Shown: positions 1-9,709 of the stretch, in pieces
Position numbering within the stretch: position 1 is the first letter of the stretch
Layout of the letters: each line of letters opens with the position of its first letter
IMG/VR virus record: IMGVR_UViG_3300037189_014399
Location: 1 to 64,000 of that record
From: a virus
Strand: one strand, 5' to 3'
Length of the DNA stretch: 64,000 nt
The notes under the pieces: generated by a model
The model's database searches: none
What the model saw: only the letters and a program-made list of their open reading frames with translations
What the model was told of the DNA's origin: nothing
Position numbers and translations under genes: made by a program

Positions 1-201
1 ATGTATGTTCTTGATACTAACAAGGATATCCCCGCCCCATTTTTACGTATGACTGCTGATGGGTGCGAGCGTATGTTCGTTCGTAACGACTTCGCCATAG
101 AGGTAGGTGAGCCTATGTCTATTCCCTGCTCATCTACGCCAGATGGTGCGGTAATGACGCTCTGTTCTACTCGTGTAGTAGAGGCTAAGCGTATTGCTTA
201 G
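1..201 (+). CDS. hypothetical protein (may be 5'-truncated by window edge)
   Basis: ORF track; same strand as neighbouring genes; no motif recognised. Confidence 0.5.
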   Translation: MYVLDTNKDIPAPFLRMTADGCERMFVRNDFAIEVGEPMSIPCSSTPDGAVMTLCSTRVVEAKRIA

Positions 202-208
202 ATGGCTT

Positions 209-242
209 TATGCCCCCCGCAGTTTTTACTGTGGAGGGTATA
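209..242 (+). other. imperfect hairpin after first ORF
   Basis: TATGCCC-C-CCGCAGT pairs with ACTGTGG-A-GGGTATA. Confidence 0.5.
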
Positions 243-257
243 TGGGTATCTAATCCC

Positions 258-551
258 AATAGGGGGAGAAAGACACACAGGTAATACGCACCCCGTTGAT
301 GTGTATGGATCTATGGACGAACTGATGAGAGTTCATAGGTAGCCACGCCCGTTCCCTTGAGCAGGAGTACGCCTGTCTGAGCGTATGGTTTGTAATGAAC
401 CATAGAACTAAGATGCCATATCAGATGCTTATAGGTAAAGAGTCGCCATTGGGGTATAGCCGGTCAACCTAGCCTGCAACTTAAGTTGTATTTATACGAC
501 TTTACTACTTGCAAGCACGCCTCGTTACCTGTGTGTCTCTCCCTCCCTATT
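258..551 (+). ncRNA. putative structured RNA A (~290 nt, closed by long terminal helix)
   Basis: AGACACACAGGTAA (271-284) is the exact reverse complement of TTACCTGTGTGTCT (525-538); outer AATAGGG/CCCTATT; several internal hairpins; non-coding gap. Confidence 0.65.
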
Positions 552-572
552 AGGAGGAGAAGGAAGGCAAAG

Positions 573-827
573 ATGCAATACAAGACTAAGGTTGTCTTGG
601 TAACTATCTATTACCGAGATACAGAGCCTAAGATTTCATTGGATGATTGGGAATCACCCGATTATCTCTTCCTCAATGATGCAATCCAAAGCTCGCTGAA
701 CAAATTCAATCCTGCGTCAAAAATCTTTGATGTCGCAATTGATCCCGTCAAAGAGTGGATCTTCCATACCGATAAATGGTGGATGCATTGGGCGTATCGA
801 CTGATAAGGAGAAAGAATGTCCTGTAA
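573..827 (+). CDS. hypothetical protein (start moved to ATG 573)
   Basis: strong SD AGGAGGAGAAGGAAGG upstream of ATG 573, within ORF 486..827. Confidence 0.7.
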   Translation: MQYKTKVVLVTIYYRDTEPKISLDDWESPDYLFLNDAIQSSLNKFNPASKIFDVAIDPVKEWIFHTDKWWMHWAYRLIRRKNVL

Positions 828-942
828 TCATCCCGTAAATAAGAAGGCATCGATCAAGTTCTGTCCTCACTGTCTATCAGGCTGTGCCTGTTGTGAGTGG
901 GGCAAGAAGGTAACTTGCGATTGCTGTTCATTAGCTGTTTGA
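817..942 (+). CDS. Cys-rich micro-protein, 41 aa (MSCNHPVNKKASIKFCPHCLSGCACCEWGKKVTCDCCSLAV)
   Basis: hand translation; AAGGAG SD; 9 Cys; below ORF-track cutoff. Confidence 0.65.
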   Translation: MSCNHPVNKKASIKFCPHCLSGCACCEWGKKVTCDCCSLAV

Positions 943-996
943 GTGAGCACGACAGCCCACAGGTGTCCGTCGCCTGTGGGTTGTAGTGTCTACTCA
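940..996 (+). other. long imperfect hairpin
   Basis: TGAGTGAGCACGACAGCCCACAGG pairs with CCTGTGGGTTGTAGTGTCTACTCA around a 9-nt loop. Confidence 0.6.
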
Positions 997-1005
997 GCGT
1001 AGGCA

Positions 1006-1144
1006 GACACTAGACATCACATCGATGGTGACGTATAAAAGAGGCCTAGATATAGTTCGTAAATACGTTGAGCCTATCTTCCCCCTTTGTATAGGCGAAG
1101 GACGTTGATTCGTTACGGCTATCGATCTCGCTCTGTCTAGTGTT
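1006..1144 (+). ncRNA. putative structured RNA B1 (~140 nt)
   Basis: GACACTAGACA/TGTCTAGTGTT closing stem, 4x7 internal loop, then ATCGATGGT/GCTATCGAT. Confidence 0.55.
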
Positions 1145-1191
1145 AAGTAGATGAATGCGGTCATAAGACCAAGTGACTCGAAACAAAAAGG

Positions 1192-1364
1192 AGGAGAGAG
1201 CGCAACAATTTATCAGGCCTAGTAGCAGCGTAGGACTGTTGGGCTTGCCCATTAGTGACACCAGGCAAAAGGCGGGGTTGATGAAGTTGAGTTAGCATCG
1301 AGGTTTGATGACTGTATAGATGGATTCGTAATTCCCTGATAGGTTCCGCTCTGCGCTCTCTCCT
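1192..1364 (+). ncRNA. putative structured RNA B2 (~170 nt)
   Basis: perfect 13-bp AGGAGAGAGCGCA/TGCGCTCTCTCCT, internal loop, then TATCAGG/CCTGATA. Confidence 0.6.
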
Positions 1365-1384
1365 ATCTAAAAGGAAGGAAAAGG

Positions 1385-2101
1385 ATGAGTGAACTAGTAA
1401 GACACTTAGATACAAATAAGTTGCCTTATCTAGATCGCGTTCATATGGCATTCCTTGAGAAGCATAAGAAAAGTGCTTCTTATGAGTGGCTTCAACATCG
1501 AGCAAGAATTATGGAGTATCAATGCCCCATAGTTATTCGAGATGAAGCCTATCAATTGGTTGCTATGAAGAACGGTAAGCATTCAGATCCTGATGGAATA
1601 CTCCTAATAAGACACGTCACACACGAACAAGCAATCGATATCATCAATGCAAGTGGTTGGTGGTATGGAAAAGGTATCGCTCGTTGTGATGAGGAGGGAA
1701 ACCACCTCGTCTTTTATTATGCATATAGCTTCAGTCGTTATGCATATACCTGGAGTACACCGGAAGATTCAGATACCGATCTAGATATTAACTTCCGTAA
1801 CTACTACATCAATTCCCTTTGTGCAATGAAGGGAACAACAAGGAAGGAGGTAGAGCGGATGTGCCATTGTTCAGGTAGATGCTATTGCGAACCAGCACTT
1901 GAGTATGAAGTGCGTGAACATAGCAATAGTGTAGTTCTTTCCAAAGGTCGTCAACAAATCAATGTAACAGTTGAGGAGTTGACAGGCTTGATGGGTTTCT
2001 TGGCTGGAGCTAAGCAAGAGATCAAGCGACTCAAGTTAGAGTCAATTGCTACTCAGATCGAAGATCTTGAGAAGCAGAAGAAGCAAGCAGAAGAACTCTA
2101 G
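1385..2101 (+). CDS. hypothetical protein (possible internal start at 1859)
   Basis: ORF with SD AAGGAAGG; internal CHCxxxCxC motif; C-terminal coiled coil. Confidence 0.75.
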   Translation: MSELVRHLDTNKLPYLDRVHMAFLEKHKKSASYEWLQHRARIMEYQCPIVIRDEAYQLVAMKNGKHSDPDGILLIRHVTHEQAIDIINASGWWYGKGIARCDEEGNHLVFYYAYSFSRYAYTWSTPEDSDTDLDINFRNYYINSLCAMKGTTRKEVERMCHCSGRCYCEPALEYEVREHSNSVVLSKGRQQINVTVEELTGLMGFLAGAKQEIKRLKLESIATQIEDLEKQKKQAEEL

Positions 2102-2110
2102 GGAGGATCG

Positions 2111-2488
2111 GTGTACATAGATGGACAAGAGTATGAAGATCTCATCAAGTTCTATCAAGACAACAAAGACAACAGTCAATGGGATCTTGATGGAGATGAC
2201 GATCTCATCAATCGTTACATACCGACTCGCCAATCACTCCGCATCTATTGGAGTGAGAAGCGAGCACAAGTCAGATGGACTTACTACAAGTTCAAGTGGC
2301 AAGCAAGACACACTGGTTACCGCTTAAAGTTTGGTGTGTATCCAAACCCAACAAAAGTTGTTGGGCAGACACTATTCAAATATGATGAGCCTTACAGCTT
2401 CGTTATGTTTGATGAGCTGAACTTTGTTTCCCCCAAAGTCAGTTCAATGATGCATTCAGTGCTATTCACTAGCCCTGAATCAGAATAG
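2111..2488 (+). CDS. hypothetical protein
   Basis: GTG start with GGAGG SD. Confidence 0.7.
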   Translation: MYIDGQEYEDLIKFYQDNKDNSQWDLDGDDDLINRYIPTRQSLRIYWSEKRAQVRWTYYKFKWQARHTGYRLKFGVYPNPTKVVGQTLFKYDEPYSFVMFDELNFVSPKVSSMMHSVLFTSPESE

Positions 2489-2496
2489 GAGGAACA

Positions 2497-2625
2497 ATGC
2501 GTCACTGTGAAATATGTGGTGCAATGCCAATGATCGATGGTTATCGTTGTGAGAACATACAAGATAATGATGTGTGCATTCACTGCTGTAACTGCGAGGA
2601 CCACAAGGGAGAAAGCAATGGCTAA
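2497..2625 (+). CDS. Cys-rich micro-protein, 42 aa (MRHCEICG...CIHCCNCEDH...)
   Basis: hand translation; AGGAGG SD; stop overlaps next gene. Confidence 0.65.
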   Translation: MRHCEICGAMPMIDGYRCENIQDNDVCIHCCNCEDHKGESNG

Positions 2626-2866
2626 AGAAATAAGCGAACACCTTGAGATCTCATTGTTTGAGGCTCAGAAGTTCGTACACGCAACACGGCACACCAATAG
2701 TAAGAGCAAGCACTGTCCCTTCTGCATTATTGTGGATGTGGCAGTTGGTACTTACAAAGCAGACACCAACAATCCGTTCGCTGTTGCTATCTTGACCGGA
2801 GAAGCCAAGTTAGCACACGACATAGTCAATGCAACAAAAGGAGGGAAGAAAGATGATGTTCTATAA
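2618..2866 (+). CDS. hypothetical protein (HCPFC motif)
   Basis: ATG 2618 with GGGAG SD within ORF 2537..2866. Confidence 0.65.
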   Translation: MAKEISEHLEISLFEAQKFVHATRHTNSKSKHCPFCIIVDVAVGTYKADTNNPFAVAILTGEAKLAHDIVNATKGGKKDDVL

Positions 2867-2993
2867 CGGATTCAATCTAATGATTGATATATTCCTAATT
2901 GCAGCCACATCATTTATTGTCTACCGCAATGCGTGGTGGGATGGATACCGCGATGGTATTGAAGATACAAAGGCAGGGCTTCACGATGAGTGA
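2853..2993 (+). CDS. small membrane protein, 46 aa
   Basis: hand translation MMFYNGFNLMIDIFLIAATSFIVYRNAWWDGY...; GGAGG SD; one hydrophobic segment. Confidence 0.55.
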   Translation: MMFYNGFNLMIDIFLIAATSFIVYRNAWWDGYRDGIEDTKAGLHDE

Positions 2994-3261
2994 AGACCTA
3001 TCTGATCAACCACACGATCACGTGGTGATGGAACTACGAGTTGATTTTGTAGTGCCACGTGATTACGATGAGCTGAGCACCATTTCTTATGGTCTTGAGT
3101 ATTTAAGTAATATACTCATAGATGCTGAAGGCATCACAGAAGAGGACAAAGAGAACGCAACGTTAAAGGTAACACAGCGTGCTCGTTGTGAAGATCTGGA
3201 TGAACCTGATCCAGAGATCACATTAGATAATGTGATTAACATACATAGGAAAACAACTTAA
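2986..3261 (+). CDS. acidic hypothetical protein
   Basis: ATG 2986 overlapping previous stop, within ORF 2899..3261. Confidence 0.65.
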   Translation: MSEDLSDQPHDHVVMELRVDFVVPRDYDELSTISYGLEYLSNILIDAEGITEEDKENATLKVTQRARCEDLDEPDPEITLDNVINIHRKTT

Positions 3262-3270
3262 TAGTATTAC

Positions 3271-3339
3271 GTGTGCCGACACAAACATCGGCAGCGCTGG
3301 CCTGGTGGCTCACTGTGGTTCGATTCCACACAGCGCACG
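3271..3339 (+). ncRNA. tRNA-like element t1 (no anticodon arm)
   Basis: T-arm TGTGG-TTCGATT-CCACA (3314-3330) abutting CAGCGCAC, which pairs with GTGTGCCG (3271-3278, one mismatch) or GCGCTG (3294-3299). Confidence 0.6.
3276..3287 (+). repeat. CCRACACAAACA motif copy 1
   Basis: CCGACACAAACA. Confidence 0.75.
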
Positions 3340-3421
3340 CATCATACTGATTGGCGAGGTCTTGGCCGTTGTAGTCATAGGTATCCGATGCCTTGGTTAC
3401 GGTTCCTAAGGTAAAACCGAT

Positions 3422-3554
3422 GGGTAGGCAAGTACTAATGCAGGAGAGATCAAATGTGATTGCTGATACGAAAAAAGGATCGGGCTCCCAAGTGACAATG
3501 GTTTCCATTGAATACTGGTCAAGGACAGTCCCTGCACATCAGGCTTGCCTACCC
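3422..3554 (+). ncRNA. putative structured RNA C (~133 nt)
   Basis: perfect 11-bp GGGTAGGCAAG/CTTGCCTACCC, 6x7 internal loop, then TGCAGG/CCTGCA. Confidence 0.6.
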
Positions 3555-3577
3555 CCTAGCTAAAAAGGAAGGTACAT

Positions 3578-4174
3578 ATGTTAGACATAACACTCCACGG
3601 TACTCCTCAACACCGCAATTCACTATCAATGGATATCAATGTACGTGGTTGGGTAATCAAAGCCAACCACGATTACAGAGGTTCTCATGAGTGTGCATTT
3701 AAGGTTAACAATGTAGGAATTACCTTTGAGGTAGAGTCTTCCAAGCTTGGATTCATGCCTGATCGCTTAAGCATTCAAGGCAATTGGTCTACCAAAGATG
3801 GAAGAAAGTGGATGGATAACGGGGGTTGGTTACCTTGGGACACGATGAACAAGTTAAAGTTTGAGTTCTTGCCTGATGCTATTCAGCAGATGGCATATCA
3901 AAACCTTGTTAAGTATCTTGAGCAATCAACAATTACTCTGGGTAAAAATCTACAGACTCTAAAGATAAACAAGCGCTTCGTACCGCTTGGATATGTAGAT
4001 ATGAATTCTAATGATGACTCTGAGGATGCATTGCCATTCTTACCATCAGTTAGAACAACTCAACCATCACCATTCATTGGTATGGATGTATCCAAATGGA
4101 AAGTAGCACGAGAGGAGATGGCGTGGGATCCATCAAAAGCTACATCAAACGCAGAAACCTCATCAGAGGTCTAA
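3578..4174 (+). CDS. hypothetical protein
   Basis: ORF with AAGGAAGG SD. Confidence 0.75.
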   Translation: MLDITLHGTPQHRNSLSMDINVRGWVIKANHDYRGSHECAFKVNNVGITFEVESSKLGFMPDRLSIQGNWSTKDGRKWMDNGGWLPWDTMNKLKFEFLPDAIQQMAYQNLVKYLEQSTITLGKNLQTLKINKRFVPLGYVDMNSNDDSEDALPFLPSVRTTQPSPFIGMDVSKWKVAREEMAWDPSKATSNAETSSEV

Positions 4175-4398
4175 AGCGTTCAGCTAAATACGGTGGTGAG
4201 TGGGACATCAATGATATTGGTTCCGTCTCACTACGTATGAAAGACGGCAGCAACAGAGAGTATCTATTCTTCTGGCCTTATGGTTGGAAGGATGGCATAC
4301 ACCTATCAACACAGAAGATTGATAGCCTTATGCAATGTGAGACTATCGATGATATCTACACATTGCAGGAGGTAAGCAATGGAGATAACAATATATAA
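4123..4398 (+). CDS. hypothetical protein
   Basis: GTG 4123 with GAGGAG SD within ORF 4096..4398. Confidence 0.6.
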   Translation: MGSIKSYIKRRNLIRGLKRSAKYGGEWDINDIGSVSLRMKDGSNREYLFFWPYGWKDGIHLSTQKIDSLMQCETIDDIYTLQEVSNGDNNI

Positions 4399-4519
4399 CT
4401 GGTGGTTTAGTATCTATATTCCACAAGTTGTTGAGTTCCATACACAAATGGGTTGGGCAATAGCTGCTGTAGTAACAGCTGTTCTATTGCGACAGCTCAA
4501 GCGCAGGTTTCTTGGGTAA
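4379..4519 (+). CDS. small membrane protein, 46 aa
   Basis: hand translation MEITIYNWWF...WAIAAVVTAVLLRQLKRRFLG; GGAGG SD. Confidence 0.6.
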   Translation: MEITIYNWWFSIYIPQVVEFHTQMGWAIAAVVTAVLLRQLKRRFLG

Positions 4520-4536
4520 GTAATCCAAGGATGGCG

Positions 4537-4617
4537 GTGCATAGATGGACACTAGATACTGGTTCTTGACTTCCCTTCTCCCCAGTATCTTGGAGGGTTC
4601 AATTCCCTCTATGCACA
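4537..4617 (+). ncRNA. tRNA-like element t2 (tmRNA-TLD-like geometry)
   Basis: perfect 7-bp acceptor GTGCATA/TATGCAC; T-arm GAGGG-TTCAATT-CCCTC; 10-nt stemless D region; 9-bp helix AGATACTGG/CCAGTATCT with 19-nt pyrimidine-rich loop; no CCA. Confidence 0.75.
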
Positions 4618-4618
4618 C

Positions 4619-4810
4619 GGAGAAGACAGAGACCTAATGAGAGATTGCAAGTGCTCGGTATCCCATGGGGAGACTAATCCGACACAAACAATCGATCAAA
4701 AGCCCAGCGTAGTCTATATGATTTAAAGTTCCGTTCGATAAACCCGGACAACCTGCCTACTGTGCGATCATGAACCAATGTTGGTGAAACTGGTGTCTCT
4801 GTCTTCTTCC
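4619..4810 (+). ncRNA. putative structured RNA D (~190 nt)
   Basis: perfect 13-bp AGAAGACAGAGAC/GTCTCTGTCTTCT plus GG/CC; begins immediately after t2. Confidence 0.6.
4679..4690 (+). repeat. CCRACACAAACA motif copy 2
   Basis: CCGACACAAACA. Confidence 0.75.
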
Positions 4811-4828
4811 TAAACATAAGGAGAACAA

Positions 4829-5143
4829 ATGAGCAAGCCAAGAAAAAGAGTATCTCTTGGCACTCCAGTCAACCTACCACCACAGAATATAGATAACTGG
4901 AAGTGGCAATTTGATGCAGCGTGCAGAGATGAAGATAACAATCTCTTTTACTATCAAGATCAAGAACGTGGTGATCAAAAAGCATCGCGTATAAAAGCAG
5001 CCAAAGCAATATGTGCTAGCTGTCCAGTAAGCACGGCCTGTTTAGAGTGGGCAACCAGAACAAAAGAAACTCATGGCATTTGGGGTGGATTGACCCCAGA
5101 AGAACGCGGCATTAAGATGCCACACGAAGAATTGGTGGACTGA
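4829..5143 (+). CDS. whiB: WhiB-family transcription factor
   Basis: W...AAC...CxxCPVxxxCLxWA...GIWGG signature. Confidence 0.95.
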   Translation: MSKPRKRVSLGTPVNLPPQNIDNWKWQFDAACRDEDNNLFYYQDQERGDQKASRIKAAKAICASCPVSTACLEWATRTKETHGIWGGLTPEERGIKMPHEELVD

Positions 5144-5215
5144 TCATCCATCATATAGGGAGACTAGAGCGGGAGTTACAAGGTAACGAAAACTCTTTTC
5201 CACACCCTATGTAGG

Positions 5216-5426
5216 GCAGGCACACAATGAGATCTCCATTAGTTAATAAAGGATCGCCTCAAGATGCCCGTCTCCAGCAACGTCTGCATACGTCTGCATA
5301 CAAGAGTCCTCACGCACTAGTGATGAAGGTACCGTGCTAGCACAGGTCAGAAAACATCATGAACGCTACGACAGGTTGCGTATTACGGTATTACGGTTCC
5401 GTGAGCGAAGGCTGAGGGGTGCCTGT
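5216..5426 (+). ncRNA. putative structured RNA E (~210 nt)
   Basis: GCAGGCAC/GTGCCTGT closing stem; nested CCTCA/TGAGG and CTCACG/CGTGAG; internal tandem duplications. Confidence 0.5.
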
Positions 5427-5500
5427 ACATGACAGGAGCAAGGAATAAAGACTAATTCGGTCAGCTATATCTAATAACGTAAAAGGATATAGAGAACATT

Positions 5501-5607
5501 GTGTGTGTTTCACCTCACAACTATACGTGTCTGCTTATCGGCGTGTCGTTGTGACAGGGGGAGGGCGTGACTAGCAGACTTCAGGGTGCAAGTCCCTGAC
5601 ACGCACG
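5501..5607 (+). ncRNA. tRNA-like element t3
   Basis: GTGTGTGT/ACACGCAC acceptor-like stem; T-arm CAGGG-TGCAAGT-CCCTG; helix GTCTGCT/AGCAGAC; 2-nt linker as in t2. Confidence 0.6.
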
Positions 5608-5639
5608 CAGTTATAACCACCATCGGGGTGGTTAGCTGT
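5607..5639 (+). other. hairpin directly upstream of ATPase RBS
   Basis: TAACCACC/GGTGGTTA flanked by GCAGT/GCTGT. Confidence 0.55.
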
Positions 5640-5661
5640 AAAGAAAAGGAAGGCAGTAACA

Positions 5662-7035
5662 ATGAAAACAGCGGTGTTTGTAGAAACGTACGAACCGGCA
5701 ATGGGCGCAGATCGTCGTCAGACTATCTTCGTACCATTTAATGAAGACGTGCGAGTGTATACCCGTGTCACTGATGGACAGAAAGGATTGTCTAATAAGT
5801 GGAACGAAGTTGCAATTGACATGTTGCACATTAGCGAGTCGGAACGTATCACTAACAAGCCAGTTGGTGTACGTGTTACTGAGAACGACAACGACGATAT
5901 CAGTGAAAAGGGTTACTCACCTGTACTCACTGTCAAAGCCGTCAATGCCCACCTCAAATCAACACCATATGGAGAGCATGATTACAATGTCCTTGATGTT
6001 GTACGTGATCTCTACCAACATGTTAGTGCTCAAGATAGTGTGGTTGAGTCAATGATTATTGACAATCGTACTAAGCCTGAGCCTTCTCCATTCATGCCTG
6101 TTACAGAAGCTGCTCCAGTTCAGGAGTATGTAGAGCGTCCAGCCGACACAAACAAATCGCTGTCGCTGGCACTCGCAACTATTCCTGCACCTGAGCTAGC
6201 TGATCGCTATGTAAGCCGTAAGATCTTCGGTCTCGTAGATTACGAGGTCTTTGATCGTAGCCGTGCAAATCATATCGACACTCTTATCTACGGCCCTACC
6301 GGTCCTGGTAAGACGTCATCTGTAATGGCGTGGGCTTCAAGCCGCAAATTACGTGTTGCTACAGTATCCGGCAATGCTGCTCTCGAGCCAAGTCAACTCA
6401 TTGGTAAGTATGTACCAGATGGGAAGGGTGGCTTTGAGTGGATTGACGGTCCTGTGACTGACGTAGTTCGCAATGGTGGTGTTCTTATCCTCGATGAGGT
6501 TAACTTCATCAGCTCTAAAATCTATACCGTCTTGTATTCATTGCTTGATGATCGTCGTGCTCTCATTCTGCTCGACCATCACGGTGAGACTGTTAGTGCA
6601 CATCGTGACCTAACAATCTTTGCGACCATGAATCCTAGCTATGTTGGCACAGTGCCACTTAACTATGCATTCCGCAACCGTTTCGGTCTACAGATCTTCT
6701 GGGACTATGACGATAAGGTCGAGGCCAAGTTAATTAAGTCCGATGCAATCCTAACTGTAATGCGTCAGCTACGCAGTGAGGCTGCTAAGGGTGAGATCGA
6801 GACTCCAGTATCTACCAATATGGGTATGGAGTTGGAATCATTCATTAACGTCTTCAATTATGAGTTTGCAATTGAGAACTTCATTGCTCACTTTGACATG
6901 GAAGAACAAGAAAAGGTCCGTCTAGTCTTCACTACCCACGAAGCTAACATTCGTGCTGACTTTGAAGAAATTCAAGTCGAGTTGGTAGAAAAGGAAGATG
7001 ACATTCAAGCAGTAACTACAACAGTAGGAGCATAG
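5662..7035 (+). CDS. MoxR/CbbQ/CobS-like AAA+ ATPase
   Basis: Walker A GPTGPGKT, Walker B LILDEVN, ATMNP sensor, AFRNRF Arg finger. Confidence 0.92.
   Translation: MKTAVFVETYEPAMGADRRQTIFVPFNEDVRVYTRVTDGQKGLSNKWNEVAIDMLHISESERITNKPVGVRVTENDNDDISEKGYSPVLTVKAVNAHLKSTPYGEHDYNVLDVVRDLYQHVSAQDSVVESMIIDNRTKPEPSPFMPVTEAAPVQEYVERPADTNKSLSLALATIPAPELADRYVSRKIFGLVDYEVFDRSRANHIDTLIYGPTGPGKTSSVMAWASSRKLRVATVSGNAALEPSQLIGKYVPDGKGGFEWIDGPVTDVVRNGGVLILDEVNFISSKIYTVLYSLLDDRRALILLDHHGETVSAHRDLTIFATMNPSYVGTVPLNYAFRNRFGLQIFWDYDDKVEAKLIKSDAILTVMRQLRSEAAKGEIETPVSTNMGMELESFINVFNYEFAIENFIAHFDMEEQEKVRLVFTTHEANIRADFEEIQVELVEKEDDIQAVTTTVGA
6143..6154 (+). repeat. CCRACACAAACA motif copy 3 (intragenic)
   Basis: CCGACACAAACA. 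Confidence 0.7.
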
Positions 7036-8998: not shown

Positions 8999-9709
8999 AT
9001 GACTAACTGGCTACATCCAGCCAGGGTTCATACGTATGAAGAAGCAGTTGATTATCTGAGCAGGGGTCGCAATAAAGATATGCGACCCCTGTATCATATG
9101 GGGCTGTTCATCAAACGTCTAGAACCTGGCAATGAAAGTTCAAATATAGCCATCGGTTATTTTAATACCTACAACAGAACACCTGAACGATATAGAGCCA
9201 TGACTATGGTTATCTTTCGTGAAGATGGTTTAGTTGAGTTACCAGGTTGGAATACCTGGTCTGGTGCTAGACGAGCGATGGTTTCATACTCCAACCTTAT
9301 GGGTATGAGATACAGCAGGGGTAACATTAAGTTACGACAGCCTCACGACACAGTAAAGAAGCGTAGTAGAAGACCATGCAAAGTATGTCATGGTATGACT
9401 ACGTGGTTTGAGCGTGAAGACAGCGGTAACTTAAAAGAATCCAAATGCCATCAATGTATAGATGGTTGGAGTGTTAGCAGAGATTCAATTATCTCTGACA
9501 CTTGGCCACAACAGCAGATGAGCATTTACAGCGATTGGAATAAATCCTTAACAGCTGTAACTGTCTACAAGCGTATGCTTGTTAACCCCCAAACTCATAC
9601 AGTTATTGGATTTGTCGATCATCTTGATGACACAGATGAAAACATCCTAGCTGTAGAGCCCGTGATAAAGGTAACAAGAAAGGAGGTAACCGATGATAGT
9701 AATGCTTGA
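8999..9709 (+). CDS. hypothetical protein with CxxC...CxxC zinc finger
   Basis: ATG 8999 with GAGGAG SD; CKVCHG...CHQCIDG. Confidence 0.75.
   Translation: MTNWLHPARVHTYEEAVDYLSRGRNKDMRPLYHMGLFIKRLEPGNESSNIAIGYFNTYNRTPERYRAMTMVIFREDGLVELPGWNTWSGARRAMVSYSNLMGMRYSRGNIKLRQPHDTVKKRSRRPCKVCHGMTTWFEREDSGNLKESKCHQCIDGWSVSRDSIISDTWPQQQMSIYSDWNKSLTAVTVYKRMLVNPQTHTVIGFVDHLDDTDENILAVEPVIKVTRKEVTDDSNA

Follow-up and report, generated by a model that had tools for sequence, protein, structure and literature searches.

The window analysed here is the first 64 kb (64,000 nucleotides, nt) of the IMG/VR virus record IMGVR_UViG_3300037189_014399, which is 104,858 bp long with an 87-bp terminal repeat. In its first 5.7 kb, protein genes alternate with closed, multi-helix RNA segments, five of which (modules A to E) are described below together with three elements that consist only of the top half of a transfer RNA (tRNA), viz., acceptor stem and T arm (mini-tRNAs T1 to T3), and three long hairpins (H1 to H3; Table 1). 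The plus strand carries all plausible genes from position 1 to about 12 kb, among them a WhiB regulator (4829-5143) and a MoxR-type AAA ATPase (5662-7035) that is followed by a vWA protein. Folded RNA, instead of protein, takes up about 40% of the first 5.7 kb, and the modules fold independently as plus-strand RNAs and are under selection. An earlier note on this DNA had described six helix-clamped segments interleaved with tRNA-like elements and hairpins, in a window said to have almost no intergenic space elsewhere. The latter statement is exaggerated, as a crude map of open reading frames (ORFs) has other gaps of 200-800 nt.

Table 1. Folded RNA features of the early region, in window coordinates; z is the folding energy relative to 150 dinucleotide shuffles
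Feature	Position	Strand	Description	z
Hairpin H1	209..242	+	15 pairs; behind the first ORF, 15 nt ahead of module A	-5.8
Module A	258..551	+	294-nt RNA; closing helix of ~26 bp with 14-bp perfect core (271-284/525-538); ends 21 nt upstream of ATG 573	-4.9
Hairpin H2	940..996	+	~25 pairs	-8.0
Module B	1006..1144	+	139 nt; 11-bp outer stem, internal loop, 9-bp inner stem; 10-bp perfect core (1007-1016/1134-1143)	-2.6
Module C	1192..1364	+	173 nt; 13-bp perfect closing helix (1192-1204/1352-1364); ends 20 nt upstream of ATG 1385	-2.9
Small hairpin	3274..3293	+	12-mer CCGACACAAACA in loop; just 5' of T1; from minimum-energy fold and sequence	
Mini-tRNA T1 (core)	3294..3337	+	6-bp acceptor-like stem, D-loop-like linker GGCCUGGUGGCU, 5-bp T stem, loop UUCGAUU, discriminator A	-1.4
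Closed irregular hairpin	3350..3420	+	between T1 and D; from minimum-energy and centroid folds; absent from the earlier note's list	
Module D	3422..3554	+	133 nt; 12-bp closure; perfect helix 3422-3432/3544-3554 (11 bp); ends 23 nt upstream of ATG 3578	-3.9
Mini-tRNA T2	4537..4617	+	7-bp acceptor stem 4537-4543/4610-4616, one inserted arm, T arm 4593-4609, loop UUCAAUU, discriminator A4617	-2.9
Module E	4619..4810	+	member of a conserved RNA family; perfect helix 4621-4633/4795-4807 (13 bp); ends 18 nt upstream of whiB ATG 4829	-4.0
Segment F	5216..5426	+	unsupported as a clamped RNA	0.0 (minus strand -0.5)
Mini-tRNA T3 (core)	5565..5605	+	5-bp acceptor-like stem 5565-5569/5600-5604, 12-nt linker, T arm 5582-5598 (5-bp T stem), discriminator A5605	-0.5
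Hairpin H3	5607..5639	+	starts 2 nt past the T3 discriminator; ends 22 nt upstream of the MoxR-type ATPase ATG 5662	-4.0

An exhaustive search of the whole genome for perfect Watson-Crick stems of at least 10 bp, with a span of 60-400 nt, recovered 29 stems, which is about the chance number. Five of the 29 close modules A to E, exactly where the earlier note had placed them. A length of 13 bp is reached by only five stems in the 105 kb, three of which close A, C and E, while about 0.01 stems of this length are expected by our own arithmetic in the approximately 2.3 kb of early spacers. Closing helices are much commoner than chance within the early spacers. The folding energies of A to E and of the three long hairpins, all of which proved real, also lie below those of dinucleotide-shuffled controls, though these z-scores are inflated since the segments were chosen for their complementary ends. 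The minimum-energy folds of B, C and D show the neck of outer stem, internal loop and inner stem that three segments were said to share. Module B is the weakest of the five supported segments. The sixth segment of the earlier list, F, does not stand: its energy equals that of the controls, its closure is only 8 bp long with one G-U pair, and it contains no stem of at least 10 bp. We dropped it because of this short closure and the lack of excess folding. No homologue of F was found beyond a short 5' piece, just the 5' flank (5163-5221) having a weak relative. Two short tandem duplications lie within it, at 5283-5302 (CGTCTGCATA twice) and 5381-5398 (GTATTACG twice).

With an ATPase profile, 66 related viral loci were recovered, each with up to 10 kb upstream (given below by labels such as L052), and homologous RNAs were modelled using hidden Markov models (HMMs) and RNAalifold. 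Nucleotide similarity of these loci to the window is almost nil, even for the closest, L052, whose ATPase is 70% identical. An ATPase-only search for close relatives found nothing in viral or metagenome contigs, and a 20-nt DNA pattern searched over metagenome contigs matched only the phage of L052. Over 62 loci, long-range stems of at least 11 bp number 0.199 per kb upstream of the MoxR gene against 0.061 per kb downstream, with about 0.076 per kb expected by chance, and these counts are not independent because some of the loci are near-duplicates. L052 is syntenic with the window. Its homologue of gene 3578 is preceded by a closed 156-nt RNA that a T1-like element abuts, its whiB by an E homologue that a T2-like element abuts, and its ATPase by a T3-like element with a hairpin. 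The 156-nt RNA (L052:7574-7729; z of -4.1) is the counterpart of D, with an 11-bp closure of different sequence and an interior that cannot be aligned. The homologue of A (L019:6366-6638; z of -4.8) has a 25-bp closure in which the 3' strand is kept and four pairs are now G-U on the plus strand. Modules B and C have no homologue among the loci of the relatives. The nearest cultured relative by ATPase, Gordonia phage Chidiebere, has a 1.2-kb gap before the ATPase block in which no comparable clamps or mini-tRNAs were seen.

The covariation proposed by the earlier note as a check is seen in E, the closures of A and D being kept in one relative each. The E alignment (A3) comprises 11 distinct sequences from 11 phages, and 94.8% of its cells are paired. 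Double changes occur in 17 of 35 pairs, whereas shuffled alignments have 6.5 +/- 1.7 (none of 500 was as high) and slid controls five or six. The conserved closing stem, 9-10 bp long in 10 of the 11 phages, opens into a multi-helix junction, and E also has the invariant unpaired words CAUAAUGA, UCAAAACA and ACUAAAUG and an almost invariant hairpin. No other nucleotide sequence of the region is as conserved as the E interior, and the HMM recovers E in all full-length E loci. A sister family, not found in the window, closes the spacer 5' of a gene for 78-79 aminoacids and has double changes in 13 of 19 pairs. The stem of hairpin H3 likewise covaries over five phages (alignment A5). With homologues in several genomes and covariation for one fold, E is, on comparative grounds, a new conserved structured RNA family.

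The strand was decided by G-U counts in these alignments, since the minus strand folds with z-scores similar to those of the plus strand. Cells with G-U outnumber those with A-C by 20 to 6 in E and by 20 to 2 in the sister family, and this excess of about 5 to 1, counted in related and thus not independent sequences, fits plus-strand RNA and agrees with the G-T pairs described in the earlier note; a crude count around the seed stems (104 to 99) was uninformative, so that the alignment-based counts were used. These observations bear on whether the arms are features of the DNA itself (miniature inverted-repeat elements, cruciforms or origin-like repeats) or inverted repeats due to chance. The terminal inverted repeats are visible to the eye and the minus-strand folding energies are near the plus-strand values, as a DNA-level feature would have it, but compensatory and G-U changes in the arms preserve plus-strand RNA pairing, no target-site duplications were seen, and chance repeats are excluded by the stem statistics. 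The arms do not belong to a multi-copy element because each arm pair is unique in the genome. We therefore rejected a miniature inverted-repeat transposable element, each arm pair occurring once in the genome and the arms covarying as RNA pairs, and hold an explanation at the level of DNA or chance to be most improbable.

E and A, at least, are independent of the gene that follows them. E lies 5' of whiB in six phages (the window, L052, L005, L006, L015 and L020) and 5' of an unrelated gene for 93-96 aminoacids in six others (L063, L030, L058, L018, L022 and L055). Different genes follow A in the window and in L019, and homologues of gene 573 in other loci have no detectable A. A gene-specific cis-regulatory leader was rejected on this ground. 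A more specific version would have each module act as a riboswitch or translational operator of its own gene, with the 3' strand of the closing helix pairing alternately with the Shine-Dalgarno sequence. The modules do abut ribosome-binding sites, and in the window A, C and E have purine-rich, Shine-Dalgarno-like 5' strands, whose 3' partners could pair with the real Shine-Dalgarno sequence a few nucleotides downstream. However, the closing stem of E is GGGCAGAGAC in the relatives and that of the sister family is UUUGGUUGGCU, B and D have no Shine-Dalgarno likeness, and a 12-mer separates the closing helix from the ribosome-binding site in most E relatives. An anti-Shine-Dalgarno switch was rejected as a general rule because the likeness is not conserved, and with the downstream gene of E and A changing as well, gene-specific regulation is very unlikely.

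An oriented 12-mer, CCRACACAAACA, is present twice in the window, in the hairpin loop right 5' of T1 (3276-3287) and inside E (4679-4690). It is found just past E and before the ribosome-binding site in L020, L063, L030, L058, L018, L022 and L055, and in most relatives its first two bases are the last two of the closing helix of E. Where it lies with respect to the RNA modules may be relevant to its function.

The hairpin of E also occurs outside of E. A 24-nt pattern describing it has matches in 31 viral contigs and none in 596 Gb of cellular genomes. About half of the 31 contigs carry full E elements, and the rest have the hairpin in a different RNA of about 270 nt. The 5' and 3' ends of this stand-alone RNA (for example, L095:3938-4246) are paired, and it comes with an extended -10 promoter and with a terminator-like stem followed by a U-tract. 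It is also present in L074, L075, L077, L082, L087, L089-L091, L094, L100 and L102, which form a distantly related sister phage lineage. The hairpin common to it and to E is GGGUAUCCCAUGGGGA..CUCCC. No Rfam match was found for the stand-alone RNA. These data bear on the model of the earlier note, in which the modules are cut free and accumulate as stable small RNAs that act in trans by binding or titrating host or defence factors. Neither E nor A is bound to one downstream gene, the conserved unpaired motifs of E are as in protein- or ligand-binding RNAs, the invariant hairpin recurs in an RNA with a promoter and terminator-like stem of its own, and stable RNAs typically have paired 5' and 3' ends; the processed, stable early RNAs of cluster A mycobacteriophages (PMC5712189) provide a precedent. 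On the other hand, no evident 3'-end-forming signal is present past the modules, the interior of D is unconserved even in the closest relative, and any target or partner is putative. The distance from module end to start codon is 18-23 nt in the window and 17-24 nt in the sister family, and all instances lie on the sense strand 17-38 nt before the ribosome-binding site, as leaders would. Every module ends 18-38 nt upstream of a start codon, which is no less compatible with leaders or stabilisers than with released RNAs, and we consider free, trans-acting RNAs a possible but doubtful outcome.

None of these RNAs could be assigned to a known family, in agreement with the earlier note. Rfam 15 (including 6S, Ms1, Y RNA/YrlA, riboswitches and self-cleaving ribozymes) gave no match in the 64-kb window, a relaxed threshold over positions 1-6000 gave at best an unrelated plastid leader (E-value of 0.11), and in 13 related loci Rfam found true tRNAs only. 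Searches of positions 1-6000 and of the E element with blastn against 50,697 phage records gave no match. The TROVE/Ro domain is absent from the 105-kb genome, control genomes being positive, and a Y RNA/YrlA identity is ruled out by the lack of both this domain and an Rfam match. A hammerhead ribozyme was considered for the CUGAUGA word in A and rejected, there being no Rfam hammerhead match and the word being CUAACGA in the L019 homologue. Neither a CCA-adding enzyme nor ribonuclease (RNase) III is encoded by the phage, and Pfam searches of ten further proteins returned nothing RNA-related.

The three tRNA-like elements described by the earlier note are all real, as top-half mimics of 39-81 nt, and the conserved cores of T1 and T3 are shorter than the spans it gave. 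In each, an acceptor-like stem stacks on a T stem of 5 bp with a 7-nt T-type loop, and an unpaired discriminator follows, which is the arrangement of a tRNA top half or minihelix, where the loop is of the UUCRANY type. T1 was recovered by an acceptor/T-arm search, and its copy in L052 (L052:7528-7571) keeps both stems by compensatory changes (GCGCUG/CAGCGC vs GCGUUG/CAACGC and UGUGG/CCACA vs CUGAG/CUCAG). T2, with stems of 7 and 5 bp, is replaced at the same place in distant relatives by a plain 11-bp minihelix ending in GCACG, and the coaxial acceptor/T helix is therefore the selected feature. T3 is kept in L052, L005, L006 and L015, where its loop is the canonical UUCRAGU, while that in the window is UGCAAGU. 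A tRNA or transfer-messenger RNA (tmRNA) identity was rejected for T1 to T3: ARAGORN found neither kind of gene in the window, and the Rfam models for tRNA and tmRNA do not match the three elements even at E-values up to 5.

The early regions of relatives contain true tRNAs on the same strand as the mini-tRNAs, and true and mini-tRNAs have in common an A-C-G trailer and no encoded CCA. One of these, a true tRNA with anticodon CAU (L005:7235-7307, L006:7309-7381 and L062:1204-1276), has the ribosome-binding site of the next early gene within about 15 nt. This CAU tRNA with its adjoining ribosome-binding site is tRNA punctuation by a genuine tRNA.

Some mini-tRNAs lie close to the modules. The gap from the T2 discriminator to E is 1 nt and from the T3 discriminator to H3 is 2 nt, the T1-like element of L052 directly abuts the D counterpart, and the spacing between mini-tRNA and module is 0-3 nt throughout the E family. 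In a blind search, a helix of at least 9 bp starts within 5 nt of 7 of the 15 mini-tRNAs, as compared to 13 of 90 control positions. The interleaving with acceptor/T-arm elements of the kind recognised by RNase P and RNase Z, proposed by the earlier note, is thus seen. RNase III, which the note had named as a cutter of long stems, fares less well as the general cutter. RNase III needs about two helical turns, i.e., 20 bp or more of near-continuous helix. If the closing helices were RNase III sites, as between the early genes of T7, and the interiors passive spacers, then the intercistronic location, the stem/internal loop/stem neck of T7 type in B, C and D, and the lengths of A (~26 bp; 25 bp in L019) and H2 (~25 bp) would be as expected. 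However, a closing stem of 9-10 bp, as conserved in E in 10 of 11 phages, falls well below the requirement, as does the closure of D (11-12 bp), and the phage encodes no RNase III. Moreover, the E interior, whose nucleotide sequence is better conserved than the rest of the region, is no passive spacer. RNase III cleavage of this kind as the general explanation is, thus, quite unlikely, though A and H2 are compatible with it.

Based on these observations, we favour a reading, to which we give about an even chance, in which closed RNA modules in an early polycistronic transcript act as leaders, punctuation and stabilisers, with host enzymes cutting at the mini-tRNAs. The early rightward block would be transcribed as one long polycistronic RNA in which protein genes alternate with folded modules. 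With a terminal helix closing each module, the entire spacer folds as a unit, and this closure would leave only the 18-38 nt with the ribosome-binding site single-stranded, insulating the site from the long spacer. Punctuation would be provided by the tRNA top-half mimics (discriminator A, trailer CG, no encoded CCA) that stand directly ahead of some modules, at which host RNase P and RNase Z likely cut, as at the true tRNAs of the relatives. Such cuts would place a new 5'-monophosphate end 1-4 nt from a helix, viz., the closing stem of E, that of D in L052 and hairpin H3, and the helix may protect the downstream message, or the module once released, from RNase E or RNase J decay that depends on the 5' end. 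At least E, and probably A, would have an extra sequence-specific job, most likely protein binding via the invariant hairpin, either in cis or after release; the conserved interior of E and the presence of its hairpin in the stand-alone RNA call for such an additional function.

Several points weigh against this leader and stabiliser reading. Transcript, transcript ends and abundance are predictions from the sequence. A stabiliser alone needs neither interiors of 100-270 nt nor the conserved unpaired motifs of E, and the model therefore requires a second function. As many as 8 of the 15 mini-tRNAs have no close helix, so that adjacency is frequent and not universal; T1 in the window is followed by 12 unpaired nucleotides, with the extra closed hairpin at 3350-3420 also preceding D, and no mini-tRNA stands ahead of A, B or C. 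Further, B and C rest on a single sequence each, and the host and, with it, the RNase set are presumed. A bolder scheme, which we regard as rather unlikely, would have the host tRNA-maturation enzymes act as scissors that release a panel of helix-capped RNAs, at least one of which, E, would serve host takeover in trans by capturing a host factor with its invariant hairpin, found only in viruses, and the sister lineage delivering the same hairpin from a stand-alone small-RNA gene.

None of the systems with which we compared the array unites mini-tRNAs with closed multi-helix modules between protein genes, and none shares sequence with it. In mitochondrial tRNA punctuation, including t-elements, and at the MALAT1/mascRNA 3' ends, tRNA-like mimics define RNA ends via RNase P and RNase Z. 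The likeness lies in an acceptor/T-arm mimic within a long transcript, exactly at the border of a unit; in contrast to mitochondrial punctuation and MALAT1, the present elements belong to a phage operon, are top halves of 39-81 nt and have a helix within a few nucleotides, and their cleavage is predicted. The RNase III sites of T7 (R0.3-R1.3) are also structured intercistronic elements of an early polycistronic transcript, some with a stem/internal loop/stem neck. However, they are hairpins of about 50-60 nt with a helix of about 20 bp, whereas the helices here enclose 100-270 nt of further structure and RNase III would need a longer stem than the conserved one of E. Simple hairpins at the 5' end stabilise mRNAs in the E. 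coli ompA leader, the B. subtilis aprE leader and the early RNA of phage SP82. These resemble the present array in having a helix within a few nucleotides of the (here predicted) mature 5' end and directly upstream of the ribosome-binding site, but only H3 is a simple hairpin, A to E being large multi-helix domains and E having conserved unpaired motifs. T4 species 1 and species 2 are stable phage RNAs with paired ends, co-transcribed with tRNAs and matured by the tRNA-processing machinery. By analogy, they resemble the modules in their paired ends and tRNA-type neighbours; they sit within a tRNA gene cluster, whereas the modules precede protein genes. The cluster A mycobacteriophages L5, D29 and StarStuff make abundant early non-coding RNAs from Pleft (PMC5712189). 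These RNAs, several hundred nucleotides long and located ahead of the first early gene, are stable, processed to species of 100-400 nt and toxic to the host (PMC5712189). The actinophage setting and the early non-coding RNA are alike in both, but there is no sequence similarity, and theirs is one block behind one promoter, unlike the present array, which is interleaved with genes and mini-tRNAs.

The phages of this lineage, of about 100 kb, are common in lakes, with more than 600 homologues of the MoxR-type ATPase, many of them on contigs of about that size, and at least one of their RNAs is better conserved at the nucleotide level than the neighbouring genes. The E family, the sister family before the gene for 78-79 aminoacids and the stand-alone RNA are uncatalogued and fit for an Rfam-style description. 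If the cutting model were true, the array would be a bacterial-virus counterpart of mitochondrial tRNA punctuation and a compact natural design to insulate and stabilise cistrons. If the modules were instead released, they would constitute a new class of phage takeover RNAs.

The closest ATPase homologues (70-73% identity) come from ENA and Logan assemblies, and the few DNA runs containing parts of the region are labelled as freshwater metagenomes, while no RNA run listed contains the phage. Given the WhiB gene, the ATPase homologues on contigs of about 100 kb and these labels, the phage probably belongs to an uncultured actinophage lineage of freshwater origin, and its hosts would be the dominant freshwater actinobacteria, judged by WhiB and the relatives. 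The rightward block starts not at coordinate 1 but near genome position 103,560, beyond a divergent point, and crosses the end of the record. At the divergent point are three true tRNA genes on the minus strand (genome 102355-102580; L105:356-581), viz., Gln-CTG, Gly-GCC and Asn-GTT. The record start cuts a gene, because the ORF that seemingly starts at window base 1 (1-201) truly starts at genome 104736, ahead of the 87-bp terminal repeat. The structured array likewise extends over the record end, with spacers at genome 103724-103991 (z of -6.3) and 104433-104735 (z of -10.6), or L105:1725-1992 and 2434-2736, both of which fold more strongly than those in the window array. Within positions 1-6000, sigma-70-type promoters are not enriched (9 vs 12 expected), and seven terminator-like sites were found vs 3.9 expected, none of them at module boundaries, as would be expected of a single transcription unit; hairpin H1 has no U-tract on its 3' side.

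A few further structured or conserved elements were noted. A small closed hairpin (5156-5210) lies right behind the whiB stop codon, and its core, GAGCGGGAG..AACGAAAAC..CUCUUUUCC, is found again in L052 (about 9340-9390) and L046 (3765-3791, 96% over 27 nt). A conserved word of about 45 nt with ACAAGGCTAAACTGCTCA, present in L019:6331-6380, L024, L028, L043, L054, L062 and L069, stands upstream of different structured spacers and some whiB genes in the relatives. Part of the spacer at genome 104433-104735 is kept in L052 (around 4840-4900), and in its minimum-energy fold the next gene has its Shine-Dalgarno sequence paired to a CCUUCCCU stretch about 180 nt away.

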